This document shows, in pieces, positions 3,036 through 56,777 of a stretch of 64,000 nucleotides of DNA (its first letter is position 1; each line of letters starts with the position of its first letter). The notes under the pieces are model-generated. The model was not told the DNA's origin and searched no databases. It saw nothing but the letters and a program-made list of their open reading frames with translations. Both the position numbers and the translations under genes were made by a program. Source of the DNA: Clostridia bacterium (GTDB lineage Bacteria > Bacillota > Clostridia > Oscillospirales > CAG-272); NCBI GenBank assembly GCA_900767415.1, contig CAAFYZ010000052.1, positions 59,660 through 123,659 on the forward strand. The letters run 5' to 3'.

Positions 3036-3983
3036 TTAGAAGTTCCGCGAAACTTTACATCGATGTAAGTTCGAGTTAATAAACCTACAGATACTTGCCA
3101 AATCGGGAAATAGTTTTGGGGTAGTAATCTTCATTTCATTTAGCAACTCTCGTAGCTCTGCTTTATTTTCGTTTGGAATTACATAGATGTGCTTTATTTT
3201 GTCCTGTATTTCTTCAATCAAATGCTCCTTGATTTCTTCAAGTGAGGAGCAATATGTCTCGGGGGATAAAAAGCGACAAATCTGAAAAATTCCTTCCTGT
3301 GCTATGATTCGTGGATTGGCATCGTTTGTTTCTAAAAAACATAGGTTGCGGTCTATTTTAACTTTGATATCGAAATCGTTTTTGCTAATTGTGTTTTTGG
3401 GATTATCAGCGTGGCCTTGTTTATTTTCAGGGCAATCCATCCAGTCCAAATTTTTCTGTAGTTGCCACTTTCGCTTGTATGTAAATTCGTCTTCTTGTGC
3501 TGTTGTTTCCCTGAAATAGAAAAAATCGTTGATTGTATATTCAACATCGGCGGCTAAAATATATGAGTCAACTTCATTTTCCTCGTTATTGATCGCAAAG
3601 AACAAAGCGACCAAAGGGTTATATGTCCAATCAAGAAGTCTTGTTCTCAAACCGTAATGCTGTGCACTGGCGATCCAGTCTGCCAGACTTTCATAGTAAG
3701 GAAGATACTGTATTGAGTAGCGATTGTAGTCCTCATACAAACTGTTTTCGTATTTTCGTAATTCTGCGTGATTACTTATTTTATCCGAAAGACCTCTTAA
3801 TACTGTCGGAAACAATTCGTTATCATATGTAAGTCCTCGAAAGGCGATTTTACAATCGCTATCTTTAGAATGCCTTTCGAACATTACATCTTTGATATTA
3901 TCTTTTGTCAGAATTATATTTTCTTTGTTTTCCAGGAGCAACTGAATAATATCCTGTCTTTTATCCGGCACTTCTCTGCTCAT
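3036..3983 (-). CDS. FRG-domain protein
   Basis: 315-aa ORF with FRGLTYDNELFPTVLRG and AQHYGLRTRLLDWTYNPLVALFFA, which match the remembered FRG-domain signature. It lies 39 nt downstream of the PP2C gene. Confidence 0.7.
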   Translation of the reverse strand: MSREVPDKRQDIIQLLLENKENIILTKDNIKDVMFERHSKDSDCKIAFRGLTYDNELFPTVLRGLSDKISNHAELRKYENSLYEDYNRYSIQYLPYYESLADWIASAQHYGLRTRLLDWTYNPLVALFFAINNEENEVDSYILAADVEYTINDFFYFRETTAQEDEFTYKRKWQLQKNLDWMDCPENKQGHADNPKNTISKNDFDIKVKIDRNLCFLETNDANPRIIAQEGIFQICRFLSPETYCSSLEEIKEHLIEEIQDKIKHIYVIPNENKAELRELLNEMKITTPKLFPDLASICRFINSNLHRCKVSRNF

Positions 3984-4022: not shown

Positions 4023-4898
4023 TTATTTTGCTTTCCTACAAATAATCGCCACGCTGAGGTCATCGCCGCTTCCTTTTTCGGAAAGGCGGGGGAGAAATTC
4101 GGCAAGTTCGTCATGAGCATCCTTTCGCTGTTGCTCCCGGTAGCCCGCAAAGATGTTTTCAATGAAGCCGAGGTATGCCTGTTCGCTCTGATAGGAATTG
4201 ATTATTCCGTCCGTAGTCAGGATCAGTCCCTGCACATCCCGTCGATCATTCAGGCGGCAGAAACAATGCTTGAATGCCACATCTGCATCGCTATTGCAAA
4301 GAGAAGTTGTCAGATTGAACTGTAATTCATCGTCTTCCAGCTGTGGGAACAGATGATTTAACAATTGTGCGCGCAAATCCCGTGTCAAAAGACAGGCATT
4401 TCCGTCGCCGAGTTTCAGAACGAAAAAGCAGGAATCTGTCAGCACTGCCGCAATGAAGGTCGCGCCGTAGGCTTTGACGGGAGATTTCACCAATGCGGCG
4501 CGGTCACCTTTCTCCAGTGCCCGATAGCGGTCATCCATTTCTAACGGATGGTCGGCAAGGTCTGCCGCTACCCGTTCATGCCAATGCTGAATGATGGAAC
4601 GCTCCAGTTGCGAGAGCATTTTCTCCCGCTCCCCATTTTGCGTGTAGAACTCTCGGCGAAAATCCCGATTGTTCTCCAGTGTCGTCATGAAGGTGGAGAG
4701 AACCTCTTTTCCGACCTCGCAGGCAAAACGGGAGCCCGTTGCACTGCGGATATATTTCTCCCCGCCGTGTCCGTCACTGATGATGATTCCGTCGTATTTC
4801 TTCTCCTGCCAGCAGAGGGACGAATCCTGACATTCCTTTCCGGCACGGATATGCGAAAAGCCCTGTACGGACAAACAATCCGCTTTGTTTCGTTGCAT
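4023..4898 (-). CDS. PP2C-family Ser/Thr protein phosphatase
   Basis: Motifs CQDSSL, IIISDGHGGEKY, LGDGNACLL, LILTTDGI. The ATG at 4898 is preceded by GGAGG with ~8 nt spacing. Alternative starts are 4931 and 5012 (ORF track). Confidence 0.8.
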   Translation of the reverse strand: MQRNKADCLSVQGFSHIRAGKECQDSSLCWQEKKYDGIIISDGHGGEKYIRSATGSRFACEVGKEVLSTFMTTLENNRDFRREFYTQNGEREKMLSQLERSIIQHWHERVAADLADHPLEMDDRYRALEKGDRAALVKSPVKAYGATFIAAVLTDSCFFVLKLGDGNACLLTRDLRAQLLNHLFPQLEDDELQFNLTTSLCNSDADVAFKHCFCRLNDRRDVQGLILTTDGIINSYQSEQAYLGFIENIFAGYREQQRKDAHDELAEFLPRLSEKGSGDDLSVAIICRKAK

Positions 4899-4935
4899 CC
4901 CGTCGTCCTCCTGTTGCCAAAATAGTCCCATCGTA

Positions 4936-6081
4936 TCACCACTGGCTGTCGTCAATGTCCGGGATGTCCACCACAATCGGCTGATTGTCGTCGATGTTGG
5001 CGAGGGCTTCATTGACCGCCGTCTGCGGGTCTTTTCCGGCAGAGCTGGTGGTTCCGGTCTTGGAGACGGTTGCCGTTACGAATTTGATGTACTGCCGGAT
5101 CTTTTCGGGATCATCAATCGAAACCACCGCTTCCTTGGAGCCGCAGACCTCGCCGAGAATGTCCTTATTGGCGTCCTCACCGACCGCAAAAGCGACCTTG
5201 ACCGCCGCCTTGAACCAATTGTTCTTGCGAAGCTCGCACAGAGGCGTTTCCCAATCGTCGGTCGGCTCACCGTCGCTCAGAAGGATGATACCGGGAGCAA
5301 GATAGCCCATCGGGTTGTCACCGAGAAATGCCTTTCTCGACATTTTCTCATTGAGCGAACGCAATGCCGCACCGAGGGAGGTCAGCCCGCCTGCGCTGAT
5401 GTCGTGCCAGATGTTCATGAACTCGTCCGGCGACACCGGCTGCGGAGTGATCCAATTCACATCGTTCGAGAAGGATGCCGCCGCGACCACAATGTTGGCG
5501 TTCGGCGCACCGTCCGCCACATCCTTGATGATCTTCGGGATGTCCTTCATTGCATAATTGACCTGTCCGATCTTCGTACCGCTCATACTGCCCGATTGAT
5601 CGAACAGGTAAAAGAGTGCCATGGTTCTTGCCGCTACTTCTTCAATGTTATCGCCATCGTATCTGCTCATTTTTCTGTTACCGTCCTTTGTTGTTTTGTT
5701 TGTTATATTTTGGGGTTCTTTCTTGGGTTGTTCATTCTTTGATTCTTTTTTCGGCTGCGTTGCATCTGCCCGCGCCAGCTCCTGCACCTTGAAAAGCGTA
5801 GCGATAATGTGCTTGCACGCGCCGTCATACTTGGAGAATGCGGGGCAATCGCAGTCGCAGACCGCCAGTTTGTTGCCCCGGAATTCCAGATGCACGGTAT
5901 AAAAATCCATCCCTGCCACCTCTGCGTCAAAGGTGTGTCGATCCCGGCTTTCCCGCAGGGCGGTGATAAAATTCTTTTCGTAATAGTCCTTGCCCTTCGC
6001 ATAAGTGATCGCCTTGTCGGTCAGGGAGCGGATATACGAATCCGTGATGTTCGGATACTTCTCCATGTCAGCTCTGCGCAT
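4936..6081 (-). CDS. SWIM zinc-finger plus von Willebrand factor A (TerY-like vWA) protein
   Basis: N-terminal CDCDCPAFSKYDGACKH (SWIM CxCxnCxH). vWA MIDAS motif LFDQSGSMSG and ILLSDGEPTD. The alternative ATG at 6066 lies 1 nt after the kinase stop. Confidence 0.8.
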   Translation of the reverse strand: MRRADMEKYPNITDSYIRSLTDKAITYAKGKDYYEKNFITALRESRDRHTFDAEVAGMDFYTVHLEFRGNKLAVCDCDCPAFSKYDGACKHIIATLFKVQELARADATQPKKESKNEQPKKEPQNITNKTTKDGNRKMSRYDGDNIEEVAARTMALFYLFDQSGSMSGTKIGQVNYAMKDIPKIIKDVADGAPNANIVVAAASFSNDVNWITPQPVSPDEFMNIWHDISAGGLTSLGAALRSLNEKMSRKAFLGDNPMGYLAPGIILLSDGEPTDDWETPLCELRKNNWFKAAVKVAFAVGEDANKDILGEVCGSKEAVVSIDDPEKIRQYIKFVTATVSKTGTTSSAGKDPQTAVNEALANIDDNQPIVVDIPDIDDSQW

Positions 6082-7408
6082 CCGGTGCGGATGACAACAC
6101 CCGCACGGACTTGTTTCCGATCTGAATTATCGTTCCGGGAATCAGCGAAACGGTCTTGCCGGGCTCATAATTCATCATCGGCTTGCCGGGATAATTTACT
6201 GCCCAGATCTGCGAGGAATCGTTGCGCAGACCGAACGTACCGGGCGTTTTCTTGCTTTCCATAAAGGTGCCGACCACGGTTTCCCGACTGCCATAGGAAA
6301 TATGCGCCTCGGTCACGGTCTTTCCTTTTCCGGCAACGATCTCGGTGCCGCCGACTTCAATTTTTACGGGAACAGCCGCCCTCTTGCGGCATCCCGGCAC
6401 GGTGCAGGAGAATACGCCGTCTGTTGCCATGGACGCAAAATTGATCTCCCCGCAACCGGGGCAGATTACCGCATCGTCAAGCAGGCGATACAGCACCCGC
6501 TTCCACGCCATTTCGCTCAGACGCTTGGAACCGTTTTTCAGCCCGTCCTCCGAAAATGCCTGCTGAAAGGCATCATGCAGATATTCGGGGTAGATGGGCC
6601 ACAGGTTCATCAGATTGGAGCTTGTCCCTCTCACGGGGGCATTAGAGCGGTCGGTGTTACTGCACACGAACACCGGGTGAATGGCGTACAGATCCTTTTC
6701 GATCTGTTGCGTCAGGCAGGGGTATTTACAGCAGTTCGCCCCCTCAAGCGGATGCGCGAGGAAAAACAGTTCAAACAGAATGACCGAGAGTGAGAACAGG
6801 TCGGTGTCGGTGCTCGGCTTGCTTGTCCCCAACACCACTTCGGGCGCCATATAACCGGGTGTGCCGCCAACGCCGAGGTTGTCCCCGTTCGGTGCTACAT
6901 TGTCGTTATCGCAGATCAGCACATCTCCCGTCTTTTTGTCAATGAAGAAGTTGCCCGGACTCAGATCCTGATAGCTGAGCCCCTTTCTATGTAGCGCCTG
7001 GAAAGCTTCCACCACATGGATCGCCGCCGTGATGACCGCTTCCGTGCTGGCGAAATGCTCCTTTGCCTTGATGAACTTGGTAAACTCCGCATAATTCTGC
7101 GGGCGCAGATCCATGATGTAGCCGAAGCCCTTGCTGTGCGCCCCCGTGACCGCAACGGCTTTCATCCACAGGAATTGGTCGGACGGACTGCCGCTTGTCA
7201 CATTGTCCACAAGGTTCTGATAGAATTTGTTGCAGTTGGGCTTGAGCGACTTCAGGTAGGTCGGCAGATACCATTTCAGCGCATAGTCCTTGCCGTCGTA
7301 GTCCACCTTATAAACGCTGCCTTGCCCGCCCTCGCCGATTTTCGACTTGACCGTAACCGTCCCGCCGTTGGTTAGTTTAATTTTTGTGCCTGGTTTGAAG
7401 TCTGACAT
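6068..7408 (-). CDS. Hanks-type Ser/Thr protein kinase with C-terminal zinc ribbon and FHA-like domain
   Basis: Gly-loop GEGGQGSVY, lysine motif YALKW, catalytic loop YQDLSPGNF, DND (DFG-like) and GTPGYMAPE. Then CPGCGE..CTVPGC, followed by a tail of FHA-like pattern (FGLRNDSSQIW...GTIIQIG). Confidence 0.85.
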   Translation of the reverse strand: MSDFKPGTKIKLTNGGTVTVKSKIGEGGQGSVYKVDYDGKDYALKWYLPTYLKSLKPNCNKFYQNLVDNVTSGSPSDQFLWMKAVAVTGAHSKGFGYIMDLRPQNYAEFTKFIKAKEHFASTEAVITAAIHVVEAFQALHRKGLSYQDLSPGNFFIDKKTGDVLICDNDNVAPNGDNLGVGGTPGYMAPEVVLGTSKPSTDTDLFSLSVILFELFFLAHPLEGANCCKYPCLTQQIEKDLYAIHPVFVCSNTDRSNAPVRGTSSNLMNLWPIYPEYLHDAFQQAFSEDGLKNGSKRLSEMAWKRVLYRLLDDAVICPGCGEINFASMATDGVFSCTVPGCRKRAAVPVKIEVGGTEIVAGKGKTVTEAHISYGSRETVVGTFMESKKTPGTFGLRNDSSQIWAVNYPGKPMMNYEPGKTVSLIPGTIIQIGNKSVRVLSSAPDAQS

Positions 7409-7636: not shown

Positions 7637-8632
7637 CTAAGAGTTTAGCGTAATCCACAAAGCAGGGCGAACACAGCAGTCATCAGTACGGACATCGTGA
7701 TAAACTTTGGAACCGCTGATTGCACCGGCTGTGCCAACAAAGTCAGCACAAAACCGACTAACGCCGGGCGACCGCATCCACCACGAGCACCAAATAGCTG
7801 AACCGCCTTTGACATAATTGTCACTTGTATAAGCGCCGTTCGCTTTTGCATAGGCCGTTGGGACGCACTTTCTGGCGTCGTCATTTCCGAAATACTTATT
7901 TACCTCGTCAAAGCTGAGCAGAAACACCTTATCCATGGTAGCATTACCGGGATTGGTGCAAAATTTGGGATTCTTGTCCGCGGGGACGGTAGTACTGACA
8001 ATCTTTATCTGATCTGCGGCACTAAATGCGGCATTCAAAAAAGTACTATTCAGCCATTCGCGTAGAGAACATGTTTCCCATGTCACATCAGCGTAGGTGT
8101 CGTTATATTTCTGACAATCAAGAGCTTTTTCGCTGATCAAGAGAATTTTATTGTCCTCTTTCGCCAAAACAAGCCATTTGATTGGTTGCTTGCCGTTTGA
8201 GGTATTATTATCTTGTTGGTATGCCCCGAATGTATAAATGTCACCGACCTCAACAGACGATTGCTCACTTTGACTATTGTCATTTTGAACCTTGGAGCGA
8301 GCGGCGTTTGCTTTTTGCTCTGCACTTGCCTTTATCTCTAACTGCACCCCTACAGCACTACACCACAGTTGCAGGCAGTTTTCTGCCGTTTCACCGGTAA
8401 AACCATAGTCATCATCCAAAACCTTTTTCCATCGGCTCATATCCAATGCGGACGGATTTTTACTTGCCTGCATTTCCGAAACAATCCCACAATGTTGGAT
8501 AGCAACCAATATATTTACCATCCCGCGTTTACATTGAGGGTATAGGTCAAGGATGTATGCTTTTAGTTTTGTACCGTCCGTCAGCACTTCCGGATATTGC
8601 TCTATGAGCTGTTTCAAATCAATTTGTTCCAT
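7637..8632 (-). CDS. Protein with an island-specific N-terminal domain and a C-terminal DUF6273-like domain
   Basis: 331-aa ORF. The C-terminal pattern IKWLVL..ISEKALD..WETCSLREWLN..FLLS..E..WWMRSPG..VRPALWI is recalled as DUF6273-type. The N-terminus is homologous to the 1412..2854 product. RBS AGAGGT precedes the ATG. Confidence 0.6.
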   Translation of the reverse strand: MEQIDLKQLIEQYPEVLTDGTKLKAYILDLYPQCKRGMVNILVAIQHCGIVSEMQASKNPSALDMSRWKKVLDDDYGFTGETAENCLQLWCSAVGVQLEIKASAEQKANAARSKVQNDNSQSEQSSVEVGDIYTFGAYQQDNNTSNGKQPIKWLVLAKEDNKILLISEKALDCQKYNDTYADVTWETCSLREWLNSTFLNAAFSAADQIKIVSTTVPADKNPKFCTNPGNATMDKVFLLSFDEVNKYFGNDDARKCVPTAYAKANGAYTSDNYVKGGSAIWCSWWMRSPGVSRFCADFVGTAGAISGSKVYHDVRTDDCCVRPALWITLNS

Positions 8633-8650: not shown

Positions 8651-9145
8651 TCAAAGAATCAAATCCAATGCCGCTTTTGCAATGGTGCCATCGGGTAACA
8701 GCAAGGTAAAGGTCTTATTCCCGAATTGCAGTTCCATTCCGTTGGTATAGGGAGTGACCGCCGTCAGCTTGCTGATCTTTTGGTCAAAGCCGAATTTCCT
8801 TGCCACAAAGACAATTCGCCGACCGGTGAAATACAGTATGCCCTTCGTGTATTCCGGTTCCACCACTGGTACACTCTTGGTTTTTCCCATATGATAGGTA
8901 AAGCCCTTGAATACCCGATAACTTGCTCCGCGGTGTCGGCTTTCGTAATGCTTTTTCTCGGTAATGATGGCAGCGATATCGACGAAATGGCAGGTTTCAC
9001 CGCCATTCAAAATCAATTTATCCGTCTGTAAATTCGGAAGCATCCCGGCATAAATTTTTTGCGCCGCCTGCGGTGGCAAAATGGAAAGCAATACCGGCGG
9101 CTGAATCGGCGGGTCTATGCCGAAAAGATATGAAAAAAGTCCCAT
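8651..9145 (-). CDS. Hypothetical protein, possible bacterial PH/GRAM-like fold
   Basis: 164-aa ORF with strong RBS GGAGG 6 nt upstream. The GILYFTGRRIVFVA pattern resembles bPH/GRAM strands. It is the first gene downstream of the inverted-repeat switch. Confidence 0.5.
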   Translation of the reverse strand: MGLFSYLFGIDPPIQPPVLLSILPPQAAQKIYAGMLPNLQTDKLILNGGETCHFVDIAAIITEKKHYESRHRGASYRVFKGFTYHMGKTKSVPVVEPEYTKGILYFTGRRIVFVARKFGFDQKISKLTAVTPYTNGMELQFGNKTFTLLLPDGTIAKAALDLIL

Positions 9146-9260
9146 GTCGTCCTCCTGCTCTGTTTGTTTGCGTACCGTCTGGCGGCAACGAACACCGGCA
9201 AGATTCCATCCACATGGGACGATTACAGCTTTGCATAGGTGAAAAATGGGAAGGCTGTTT

Positions 9261-9282
9261 TTTTCACCTATTACTATAATAG
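9261..9282. repeat. Left arm of the 22-bp perfect inverted repeat (TTTTCACCTATTACTATAATAG)
   Basis: Exact reverse complement of 9416..9437. An additional copy of the ATAGGTGAAAA core at 9235..9245 forms a local hairpin with this arm. Confidence 0.9.
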
Positions 9283-9367
9283 ATGAAAAAATTGCGGCAA
9301 TTTCTCGTGCATTTCACGCATTTTTGAAAAAAGCCGCCTCTTTTGACAGTATAATGTTGGAATAATA

Positions 9368-9396
9368 TTGACTTTTCACTGTCATTTTGATATAAT
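9368..9396 (+). promoter_or_regulatory. Consensus sigma-A-type promoter inside the repeat-bracketed segment
   Basis: TTGACT (9368..9373), 17-nt spacer, TATAAT (9391..9396). In this assembly it points toward the 3' end of the recombinase gene (antisense) and away from the cargo genes. Confidence 0.6.
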
Positions 9397-9415
9397 TATA
9401 GAAGAAGTTGTGTAC

Positions 9416-9437
9416 CTATTATAGTAATAGGTGAAAA
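9416..9437. repeat. Right arm of the 22-bp perfect inverted repeat (CTATTATAGTAATAGGTGAAAA)
   Basis: Exact reverse complement of 9261..9282. It ends 2 nt before the recombinase stop codon (9440..9442). Confidence 0.9.
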
Positions 9438-9439
9438 TA

Positions 9440-10363
9440 TCAAAGCAGTTTCCCGAGGCGGTTCATCATCTCGTGTTTATGCGGCATCAAGCTGTGAACA
9501 TAGCGATTCAGCGTGACGGTCGGGTTCTTGTGACCGAGGATTTCCGACAGCGTTTTGACATCCATTCCGCACTCCAACGCGCGGGTGGCAAAGGTATGCC
9601 GCAGGGCGTGAAACCCGCGATGCGGAATGCCGACCCGACGGAGTAGCAAGCTAAAACTGTATTGATAAGAGCGCACCGTTTGCACCTTGTCCTCTCCGAC
9701 AACAAAGGCGGAGGAGGACTTTTTCTTTTGCTCCCGCAGAAGCGGCAACAGTTGCTTCGGAATCGGAACGATACGGCGGGAGGTCGGCGTTTTCGGCGCT
9801 TCTATAAGGCGGCAGTATCTGCCGTCTTTGTTGCTGTCGTGACAACTTTTATTTACGGAAATCTCGCCTTTTGCAAAATCGATGTCAGACCACTCAAGCG
9901 CGAGCAGTTCTCCGATGCGCAACCCCGTGTATAAACAAAGCACGATTCCGAACATCTTCGGGCGCCTGTCGGCAAGTACCGCCGCTACGATCTTTTTCTG
10001 TTCCTCTACCGTAAAACACTCGATTTGCTTTTCCGCCGCCTTCGGGCGCTTTACCTGATCGGCAGTATATTTCGGAAGATAGCCGAGATGATACGCCACC
10101 TGCAAAGCGACTTGTATCACCGTGACAATCGCATTCACCGTATTGGCAGACAGCCCGCCGCCGGTCCGAAGATTGCCATGCGCGGAAAGTTCCGTTACCA
10201 TTTGTTGCAGCGTCAGCGGCGTGACCTCCGACATCTCCGATTCTCCGATACGCGGTATCAAATGCTGTATCACGACCTCGGAATAACGAGTATAAGTTTT
10301 CTCTTTTGCCGTCGGTTTCACATAATTTTCAAGCCATACCGGTAACCATTCCTTGATTTTCAT
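9440..10363 (-). CDS. Tyrosine site-specific recombinase (integrase/invertase family)
   Basis: 307 aa. The C-terminal catalytic region is HALRHTFATRALECGMDVKTLSEILGHKNPTVTLNRYVH (R..HxxR..Y pattern), and the N-terminus is a SAM-like domain. Confidence 0.9.
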   Translation of the reverse strand: MKIKEWLPVWLENYVKPTAKEKTYTRYSEVVIQHLIPRIGESEMSEVTPLTLQQMVTELSAHGNLRTGGGLSANTVNAIVTVIQVALQVAYHLGYLPKYTADQVKRPKAAEKQIECFTVEEQKKIVAAVLADRRPKMFGIVLCLYTGLRIGELLALEWSDIDFAKGEISVNKSCHDSNKDGRYCRLIEAPKTPTSRRIVPIPKQLLPLLREQKKKSSSAFVVGEDKVQTVRSYQYSFSLLLRRVGIPHRGFHALRHTFATRALECGMDVKTLSEILGHKNPTVTLNRYVHSLMPHKHEMMNRLGKLL

Positions 10364-10387
10364 TTTTCAAAAATCCCCCTCTCTAAA

Positions 10388-10428
10388 AAAGAGCAGGATG
10401 CCTGTTACACAGCATCCTGCTCTTCTGT
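10388..10428 (-). terminator. Hairpin with T-tract on the minus strand
   Basis: AGAGCAGGATGC ... GCATCCTGCTCT, a 12-bp stem. On the minus strand it is followed by TTTTTT. It lies between the GH20 gene and the recombinase start. Confidence 0.6.
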
Positions 10429-33511: not shown

Positions 33512-33549
33512 GCCCCGAAAGACGGCGCGCCGTCTTTCGGGGCTTTTTT
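33512..33549 (+). terminator. Rho-independent terminator
   Basis: GCCCCGAAAGACGGCGC/GCGCCGTCTTTCGGGGC perfect palindrome followed by TTTTTT. Confidence 0.85.
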
Positions 33550-40756: not shown

Positions 40757-40905
40757 CAATCCAAGGGCATATTCATCCGGGGTCCCCGACAAAACAAGCA
40801 AAGCGGTTTTGTTTTGGAGAGGAGACACAGCACCGTGATTGACGCCTGCCGCTTACGGCGGGCGGAAAGATACAAAGCTTGTGTCGACGATATGCCCTTG
40901 GATTG
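40757..40905. repeat. 16-bp perfect inverted repeat enclosing a 117-nt hairpin-rich segment (unclassified structured element or MITE-like)
   Basis: CAATCCAAGGGCATAT (40757..40772) pairs with ATATGCCCTTGGATTG (40890..40905). Internal hairpins are CAAAACAA..TTGTTTTG and GCCTGCCG-cttaCGGCGGGC. A further hairpin, CCCCTCCACCcgaaGGTGGAGGGG, follows at 40906..40929. Confidence 0.6.
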
Positions 40906-40945
40906 CCCCTCCACCCGAAGGTGGAGGGGACTTGAAAATCAGAAT

Positions 40946-56417: not shown

Positions 56418-56777
56418 GATTGCGGAATGATCTGTATTCGACACGCCTATGAGTCGCCGCGGCGCTTCTTTTTGTAGGGGTCGGCGCCCCCGACGACCCG
56501 CAAAAGGGTGGCGAATCGACACACCGACCTATGCGAGATACCCGATAAATCATTAAAAAAATATCATTGAGGGTTCTCTTCTCTCGCTGAAAGCGAATTT
56601 CACATGACGCAGTCATATTTCACGCGAGGAGCGCATTTCACCCGACCGCAGGTCGGATTTCGTTCCTACGCGAGATACCCCATCCACCGATAAGAAAAAC
56701 GCTTTCTTATCGACCTTACTTATTTTGTTTTCTTTTGAAAAAATATAAAAAACTTTTTGAAAAGCGAGGTTTTTCAC

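Follow-up and report, generated by a model that had tools for sequence, protein, structure and literature searches.

The locus between a tyrosine recombinase gene and the genes that follow it is, with high confidence, a phase-variation switch (inverton) in which a promoter segment is flipped by the neighbouring recombinase. It lies in the window, that is, the whole 64,000-nt stretch of Clostridia bacterium contig CAAFYZ010000052.1 that was analysed. There was little doubt that the locus is an invertible-promoter switch and that its family undergoes inversion in nature, and the window copy itself likely still switches. The preliminary description had read the segment as a fim-type invertible promoter; this reading was supported by related contigs, which carried the interior both ways between conserved flanks.

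Inverted repeat and core sites

The 22-bp perfect inverted repeat described earlier was confirmed: 9261..9282 (TTTTCACCTATTACTATAATAG) was the exact reverse complement of 9416..9437, with 133 bp between the arms (9283..9415). In an exhaustive search it was the longest perfect inverted repeat with a loop of at most 500 bp in the 64-kb window, the runner-up being 17 bp long. When the sequence was shuffled 100 times in composition-preserving blocks, the longest inverted repeat was 11-15 bp, and 18 bp in one shuffle. Each arm proved to be part of a complete, nearly palindromic 29-bp core site with an 11-7-11 layout (Table 1), and the centres of the two sites (9275 and 9423) were 148 bp apart. With asymmetric 7-bp spacers that are exact reverse complements of each other, the core sites are in inverted orientation. 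No further full core site was found anywhere in the window, and half-site matches numbered 6 vs 0.71 expected by chance.

A third copy of the repeat core had been reported at 9235..9245. ATAGGTGAAAA was indeed present there, pairing with 9260..9271 as a 12-bp perfect hairpin. The proposal that it is an extra recombinase site gained support from a half-site at the equivalent position in four diverged subfamilies (window-type, L022, L024/L043 and L033), downstream of the cargo-proximal site. It was absent from L006 and L008, in which other cargo begins directly after the core site. This putative half-site is probably an accessory binding site. Rfam searches at gathering thresholds returned nothing in the switch or the leader.

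Table 1. Coordinates of the switch, the recombinase gene and the cargo genes in the window.
Feature	Position	Strand	Remarks
FRG-domain protein	3036-3983	-	Pfam; PADLOC match to PDC-S15 (7e-43)
PP2C phosphatase	4023-5012	-	Pfam
SWIM-vWA protein	4936-6081	-	Pfam; PADLOC match to PDC-S62
Ser/Thr kinase	6068-7408	-	Pfam; PADLOC match to PD-T4-6/mad6 models
DUF6273 protein	7637-8632	-	Pfam
First cargo gene, 164 aa	8651..9145	-	Accompanies the switch in many loci
Leader of first cargo gene	9146..9234	-	Conserved in relatives; RNA fold z-score -2.96
Accessory half-site (putative)	9235..9245	.	ATAGGTGAAAA; outside the invertible segment, cargo side
Cargo-proximal core site	9261..9289	.	TTTTCACCTAT-TACTATA-ATAGATGAAAA; spacer 9272-9278
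Invertible segment, spacer to spacer	9272..9426	.	Interior 9283-9415 (133 bp); homologous interiors reversed in relatives
Recombinase-proximal core site	9409..9437	.	TGTGTACCTAT-TATAGTA-ATAGGTGAAAA; spacer 9420-9426
Tyrosine recombinase, 307 aa, presumed invertase	9440..10363	-	Pfam Phage_integrase 2.8e-25, Phage_int_SAM_3 9.8e-11
Terminator (putative)	10389..10424	-	13-bp GC-rich hairpin then T run; ends ~25 nt upstream of the recombinase start codon

Predicted promoter and proposed mechanism

The promoter was found as described, TTGACT-17-TATAAT on the plus strand at 9368..9396, matching the consensus at 11 of 12 positions. A TG before the -10 made it an extended -10 promoter (TGATATAAT), predicted to be of the sigma-70 type. 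Sites scoring at least 11/12 were rare: the two strands of the window together held only 5, and when the AT-rich interior was shuffled, a promoter of this grade arose in about 1% of cases. A chance reading was rejected, alongside the att-site and operator/RNA readings.

As claimed, the predicted promoter in the assembled orientation (OFF) ran antisense to the recombinase gene, entering it at the 3' end; its transcription start is predicted near 9403/9404 on the promoter strand. The geometry of the flipped state also held: on the minus strand the -10 would land at approximately 9302..9307, placing it about 150 nt ahead of the ATG at 9145, and an AGGAGG ribosome binding site precedes this ATG. 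The predicted ON junctions are TTTTCACCTATTACTATAATAGGTACAC on the cargo side and CATCTATTATAGTAATAGGTGAAAATATCA on the recombinase side; reads across the ON junction would show the cargo flank followed by TTTTCACCTATTACTATAATAG and GTACACAACTTC. A weaker minus-strand promoter had also been noted in the assembled orientation. The hexamers were present (TTGCCG-16-TATAGT, 9300..9273, 9/12); as a promoter the match is probably fortuitous. The L010-type interior lacks its -35, and what reads as its -10 is the conserved spacer of the core site, so that it was not accepted as a conserved feature. With a 9/12 match facing the cargo, the OFF state may not be fully silent.

In the mechanism that we propose, the 307-aa recombinase would bind the two 29-bp sites, each with 11-bp half-sites (TTTTCACCTAT) around the asymmetric TACTATA spacer, and strand exchange in the identical spacers would invert the segment between the core sites. 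In the OFF state the near-consensus promoter would fire against the end of the recombinase gene. When ON, it would read through the cargo-proximal site and the leader of about 150 nt into the 164-aa gene, and transcription would probably continue into the DUF6273, kinase, SWIM-vWA, PP2C and FRG genes. We infer that the adjacent recombinase is the flipping enzyme, that the promoter is active and that all the cargo genes form a single transcription unit; within the cargo array, no strong promoter or terminator was found on the minus strand. A 148-bp loop is short for synapsis, so that DNA bending or a host factor would be needed.

A second conserved interior motif, TTGACAGTATAAT, was observed at 9343-9356, 11 nt upstream of the -35. 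It contained abutting -35-like and -10-like hexamers, incapable of forming a normal promoter, and may be bound by a protein that bends DNA or has a regulatory role.

Both orientations in related loci

Searching public genomes and metagenomes for the repeat, and looking up contigs that encode close relatives of the recombinase, yielded about 50 loci. The conserved flanks used in the comparison were the recombinase 3' end on one side and the 164-aa gene on the other. Between L015 and L017, the left flank matched at 94 of 100 positions and the right flank at 95 of 100; the interior matched at 84 of 133 positions when read forward and at 131 of 133 as the reverse complement. The interior was likewise reversed between matching flanks when L010 or L019 was compared with L017. 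L017, L051-54, L056 and L058-60 were reversed with respect to L010, L015, L019, L055 and L057, and the inversion breakpoints fell within the repeats. Recombinases of relatives with both orientations and the same flanks were 86-95% identical. Further, one identical recombinase (P0168, in the same 90% cluster as the window recombinase) was found in a single conjugative-element context with the promoter toward the cargo in 8 contigs and toward the recombinase in 2. In-silico evidence of this kind, namely a strain with the reverse complement, led to the first recognition of the flagellar switch of C. difficile (PMC5386303).

These reversals bear on the reading that no DNA is rearranged and that the palindromes are operator sites or RNA structures regulating a fixed promoter. 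Each site is a near-perfect palindrome of the type bound by dimeric repressors, and the transcribed leader folds into stable hairpins. However, reverse-complemented interiors between conserved flanks in independent assemblies are unexplained by a fixed promoter, as is the covariation of asymmetric spacers between partner sites, and no Rfam family was matched. We consider this reading extremely improbable.

Some contigs stopped inside or beside the switch: L003 (19 nt from the repeat), L042 (20 nt after the recombinase stop codon), L062 and L063. Mixed orientations would break metagenomic assemblies at such a place, and the contig ends are weak evidence for them.

The recombinase

The recombinase stop codon (9440-9442) was 2 nt from the end of the repeat arm at 9437, in agreement with the adjacency described earlier. 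The open reading frame was intact, and R149, K191, H252, R255, H278 and Y288 were invariant in an alignment of 18 family sequences. A phmmer search showed its product to be the sole tyrosine recombinase in the window. Among the NCBIfam models, the score for the FimB/FimE-type model NF007371 was 23.9 bits vs a cutoff of 222, and the scores for XerA (93 bits vs 220), XerC (66 vs 335) and XerD (51 vs 330) fell below the equivalog cutoffs, as did those for the integron integrase models TIGR02249 / NF011946 (56.8 bits vs 265 and 36.3 vs 435). The resemblance to Xer proteins thus appears to be at the superfamily level only. The closest solved structure was the catalytic domain of the Tn1549 integrase. 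Relatives formed 1,407 clusters at 50% identity (E <= 1e-30), counted by recombinase match alone, and the recombinase family is abundant in gut Clostridia. Scans of viral contigs with the 22-mer and with the recombinase protein returned nothing relevant, giving no sign of phage origin.

The strong hairpin upstream of the recombinase gene, which immediately precedes the recombinase ribosome binding site, would terminate transcription of the upstream GH20 gene. It leaves no space for a dedicated recombinase promoter, suggesting that the recombinase is expressed only by read-through.

Conservation, spacer covariation and probable locked variants

Four recombinase subfamilies, with identities from 95% down to 65%, kept the core sites, the spacing and the promoter. 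The first core site followed the recombinase stop codon by 2-9 nt across all four. The centre-to-centre distance was 148 bp in 22 of the 26 tabulated two-site loci, with 148-bp loci present in every subfamily; the exceptions were 147 bp (L006, L014 and L016) and 149 bp (L003). A distance held at 148 bp, approximately 14 helical turns, suggests that synapsis of so short a loop depends on helical phasing. The position and direction of the promoter relative to the nearer core site were conserved in the four subfamilies: TTGNNN-17-TATAAT, often with TG, was directed outward through that site, while the remaining interior diverged.

The spacers were TACTATA, TGTTATA, TGTTGTA or TGCTGTA depending on the subfamily, and partner sites matched in inverted orientation within each. 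Matching crossover regions are expected of tyrosine-recombinase sites. Spacers that match within loci and differ between subfamilies are the hallmark of a crossover region that functions. One subfamily, L041, with 73% recombinase identity and a methyltransferase as cargo, had a promoter in the expected place but sites that did not fit the 11-7-11 layout, and it was left out of the counts. In relatives at 40-45% identity, the half-site after the stop codon was still recognisable and the contigs broke inside the switch. L061, with a 51%-identical recombinase, had no switch, showing that not every member of the wider protein family has this architecture.

Changes that should lock the switch were seen in several loci. 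L002 (7085-7140) had a 37-bp deletion between the accessory half-site and the direct-repeat half of the core site, keeping one full core site only, in the OFF orientation. Spacer substitutions affecting one site of the pair occurred in L017, L006 and the L051 group (ON) and in L045 (OFF), and these should have the same effect. Among distinct two-site OFF types, 13 had perfectly matching spacers and L045 had one mismatch. Four distinct ON types were found, of which the L051 group, the L006 group and L017 (about 250-270) had 1-2 spacer mismatches and L022 was perfect. The association of ON with spacer mismatch (one-sided Fisher ~0.02, hand calculation) is only suggestive, given the non-independence of the loci. 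It fits a switch whose resting state is OFF and in which a majority of ON arises mostly when locked; a plausible cause of the OFF rest state is the strong promoter converging on the recombinase gene. With mismatches in three of the four ON types, some ON states may be old fixed inversions rather than active switching. With its covarying spacers, spacing within 1 bp and locked ON/OFF variants, the family is an unusually clean natural data set, in which the inversion of a very short DNA loop by a simple tyrosine recombinase can be examined.

These data also bear on whether the window copy is a relic, with the family inverting and this copy permanently OFF or flipping too rarely to matter, for example where the recombinase is barely expressed behind the 10389-10424 terminator and is opposed by the convergent strong promoter. 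All three contigs of the species were OFF: the window, L001 (its duplicate) and L003 (the species representative). Of 14 distinct sequence types whose sites are intact, 13 were assembled OFF; most ON assemblies had spacer mutations, and the lack of space for a recombinase promoter points the same way. However, the window core-site spacers are identical and the 22-bp repeat is perfect, the recombinase frame and catalytic residues are intact, and L022 was ON with perfect sites. Moreover, an assembly shows the majority orientation only, so that an OFF consensus is compatible with a switching minority. We regard a relic as unlikely and favour a copy that still inverts.

Mobility of the recombinase-switch unit

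The recombinase and switch were found beside type IV secretion system (T4SS) genes on conjugative elements (L018, L019 and L051) as well as in other chromosomal contexts. The cargo behind the unit varied, including LRR_5 surface proteins, WHH and Sel1 proteins, an Eco57I-like methyltransferase and the kinase/vWA/PP2C set. Homology of the window to the conjugative-element copies began at approximately 10390, about 27 nt upstream of the recombinase ATG; as this is where the 10389-10424 terminator lies, the terminator marks the upstream edge of the transferred module. At the other end, homology between L017 and L006 stopped at the outer edge of the cargo-proximal site (interior 128/133, right flank 55/100). 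The varied contexts and cargo, together with these homology edges, indicate that the recombinase-switch unit behaves as a portable cassette.

Such mobility would also be expected if the sites served mainly for attachment or cassette exchange, moving the module or swapping its cargo with inversion as a side reaction. The occurrence of the unit in unrelated contexts (the chromosome here, conjugative elements elsewhere), both homology edges, and the L002 deletion between two direct half-sites agree with this. However, the full sites are inverted, not direct, and 148 bp apart; the conserved promoter position and the spacing within 1 bp suit a switch and not att sites, and no second full-site copy exists elsewhere in the 64-kb window. 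This reading was judged very unlikely, and the two roles are not mutually exclusive. Assignment of the sites as attL and attR of an integrated element was rejected, since direct repeats at the element ends would be required.

As a tentative synthesis built on an invertible promoter, the 1.1-kb unit of recombinase gene and 148-bp inverton (~9261-10390) might be a portable cassette that travels on conjugative elements and places interchangeable cargo under stochastic control. It would be tuned by the fixed spacing (synapsis), the accessory half-site and convergent transcription in OFF that silences its own recombinase, with intact switches resting OFF and ON reached mainly via spacer locking mutations. 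Taken as a whole, this joint proposal is somewhat doubtful. Its cargo would include LRR surface proteins and a methyltransferase elsewhere, and here a candidate anti-phage kinase/SWIM-vWA/PP2C/FRG system.

Cargo island and surroundings

The cargo lay on the recombinase strand, with two more genes listed downstream after the FRG gene. For the 164-aa protein, Pfam at E <= 10 was uninformative, and the AlphaFold model (pLDDT 48) was unusable. Upstream of the recombinase were a GH20 glycosidase gene and then housekeeping genes, e.g., alanyl-tRNA synthetase. The island at about 3-9 kb (kinase, SWIM-vWA, PP2C, FRG and DUF6273 genes, with PADLOC candidate-defence matches) is probably expressed only in a subpopulation of cells, which affects the study of such systems in metagenomes and isolates.

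In the leader, GUCCCAUG (9216-9224) was complementary to CAUGGGAC (9139-9147, minus strand), which spans the start codon of the 164-aa gene, and the pairing occurred in the minimum-free-energy fold. In this predicted structure the pairing may act as a translational brake on read-through transcripts. The DUF6273 domain comes up in the literature on diversity-generating retroelements and on prophages and phages of Faecalibacterium; the window held no template repeat of such a retroelement for the DUF6273 gene.

Comparison with known systems

The switch is of a known device type, a fim-like inverton with a cis-encoded tyrosine recombinase, and the family member is new; as the device is a textbook one, the conceptual advance is modest. 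As in E. coli fimS, a short invertible segment, here with a predicted promoter, is served by a cis-encoded tyrosine recombinase, the recombinase gene reads toward the switch with the regulated genes next on the same strand, and in OFF the promoter is directed at the recombinase gene. Recombinase expression may therefore vary with orientation, as described for fimE in the fim literature. The fimS element measures 314 bp, its inverted repeats are 9 bp long, and it is served by two small dedicated recombinases (FimB/FimE) together with IHF and Lrp. By contrast, the window has one 307-aa recombinase with a SAM-like N-terminal domain, 29-bp palindromic sites and a spacing of 148 bp.

The core sites of simple tyrosine recombinases (dif, 11-6-11; loxP and FRT, 13-8-13) have inverted half-sites and an asymmetric spacer that matches between partners. 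The sites described here resemble them in having a half-site pair around a short asymmetric spacer, with an 11-7-11 layout and covarying spacers. Whereas dif, loxP and FRT serve in resolution, excision or integration, the two sites here are fixed in inverted orientation 148 bp apart and are accompanied by an accessory half-site. Invertible promoters of Bacteroides (Mpi, Tsr) lie upstream of surface or accessory loci, sometimes beside a tyrosine recombinase, and Mpi is a serine recombinase acting globally. The window switch differs from them in phylum, promoter consensus and repeat motifs.

The RecV-dependent switches of C. difficile are similar in size (flgB, 154 bp with 21-bp repeats; cwpV, 195 bp with 21-bp repeats), and naturally locked variants caused by repeat changes have been reported for them (PMC5386303, PMC2784873). 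They share with the window switch the class Clostridia and a XerC/D-like tyrosine recombinase. RecV acts on several switches from a gene located elsewhere in the genome, the region inverted at cwpV does not include the promoter, and the flagellar switch acts after transcription initiation (PMC5386303, PMC2784873). By contrast, the recombinase is adjacent here and the segment carries a predicted consensus promoter.

In the 2025 study of the defined gut community hCom2, Clostridia inverton group 139 was tightly linked to adjacent tyrosine recombinases of 'invertase group 35', and its orientation ratios shifted with passage and surface attachment (PMC11892184). The group has in common with the window the habitat and an adjacent tyrosine recombinase/integrase in gut Clostridia. 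However, the repeats of its two quoted examples are 231 and 241 bp apart start to start, vs 148 bp here (PMC11892184). Judged by span alone, group 139 is probably a sister family, its identity with the window family being somewhat unlikely.

Other observations

A second, far larger inversion was seen downstream of a related switch. A 1,470-bp segment containing the whole gene for a 381-aa integrase was reversed between L034 (1553-3022) and L035 (1514-2983), contigs that were otherwise identical; it was flanked by an inverted repeat of approximately 28 bp (GTGTAATGAAGCTTTGTACTTCACAAT).

Elsewhere in the window, a 16-bp perfect inverted repeat (40757-40772 and 40890-40905) surrounded a 117-nt intergenic segment and was followed by a GC-rich hairpin at approximately 40908-40930 (CCCCTCCACC..GGTGGAGGGG). 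This region (40757-40930) looks like a structured RNA or leader, and it matched no Rfam family at gathering score. A 32-bp perfect GC-rich palindrome followed by a T run at 33512-33543 was an ordinary intrinsic terminator. A match to Gut-1 RNA (Rfam RF01706) lay on the minus strand at 56592-56665, with 65.8 bits vs a gathering score of 50 (E = 7e-11).
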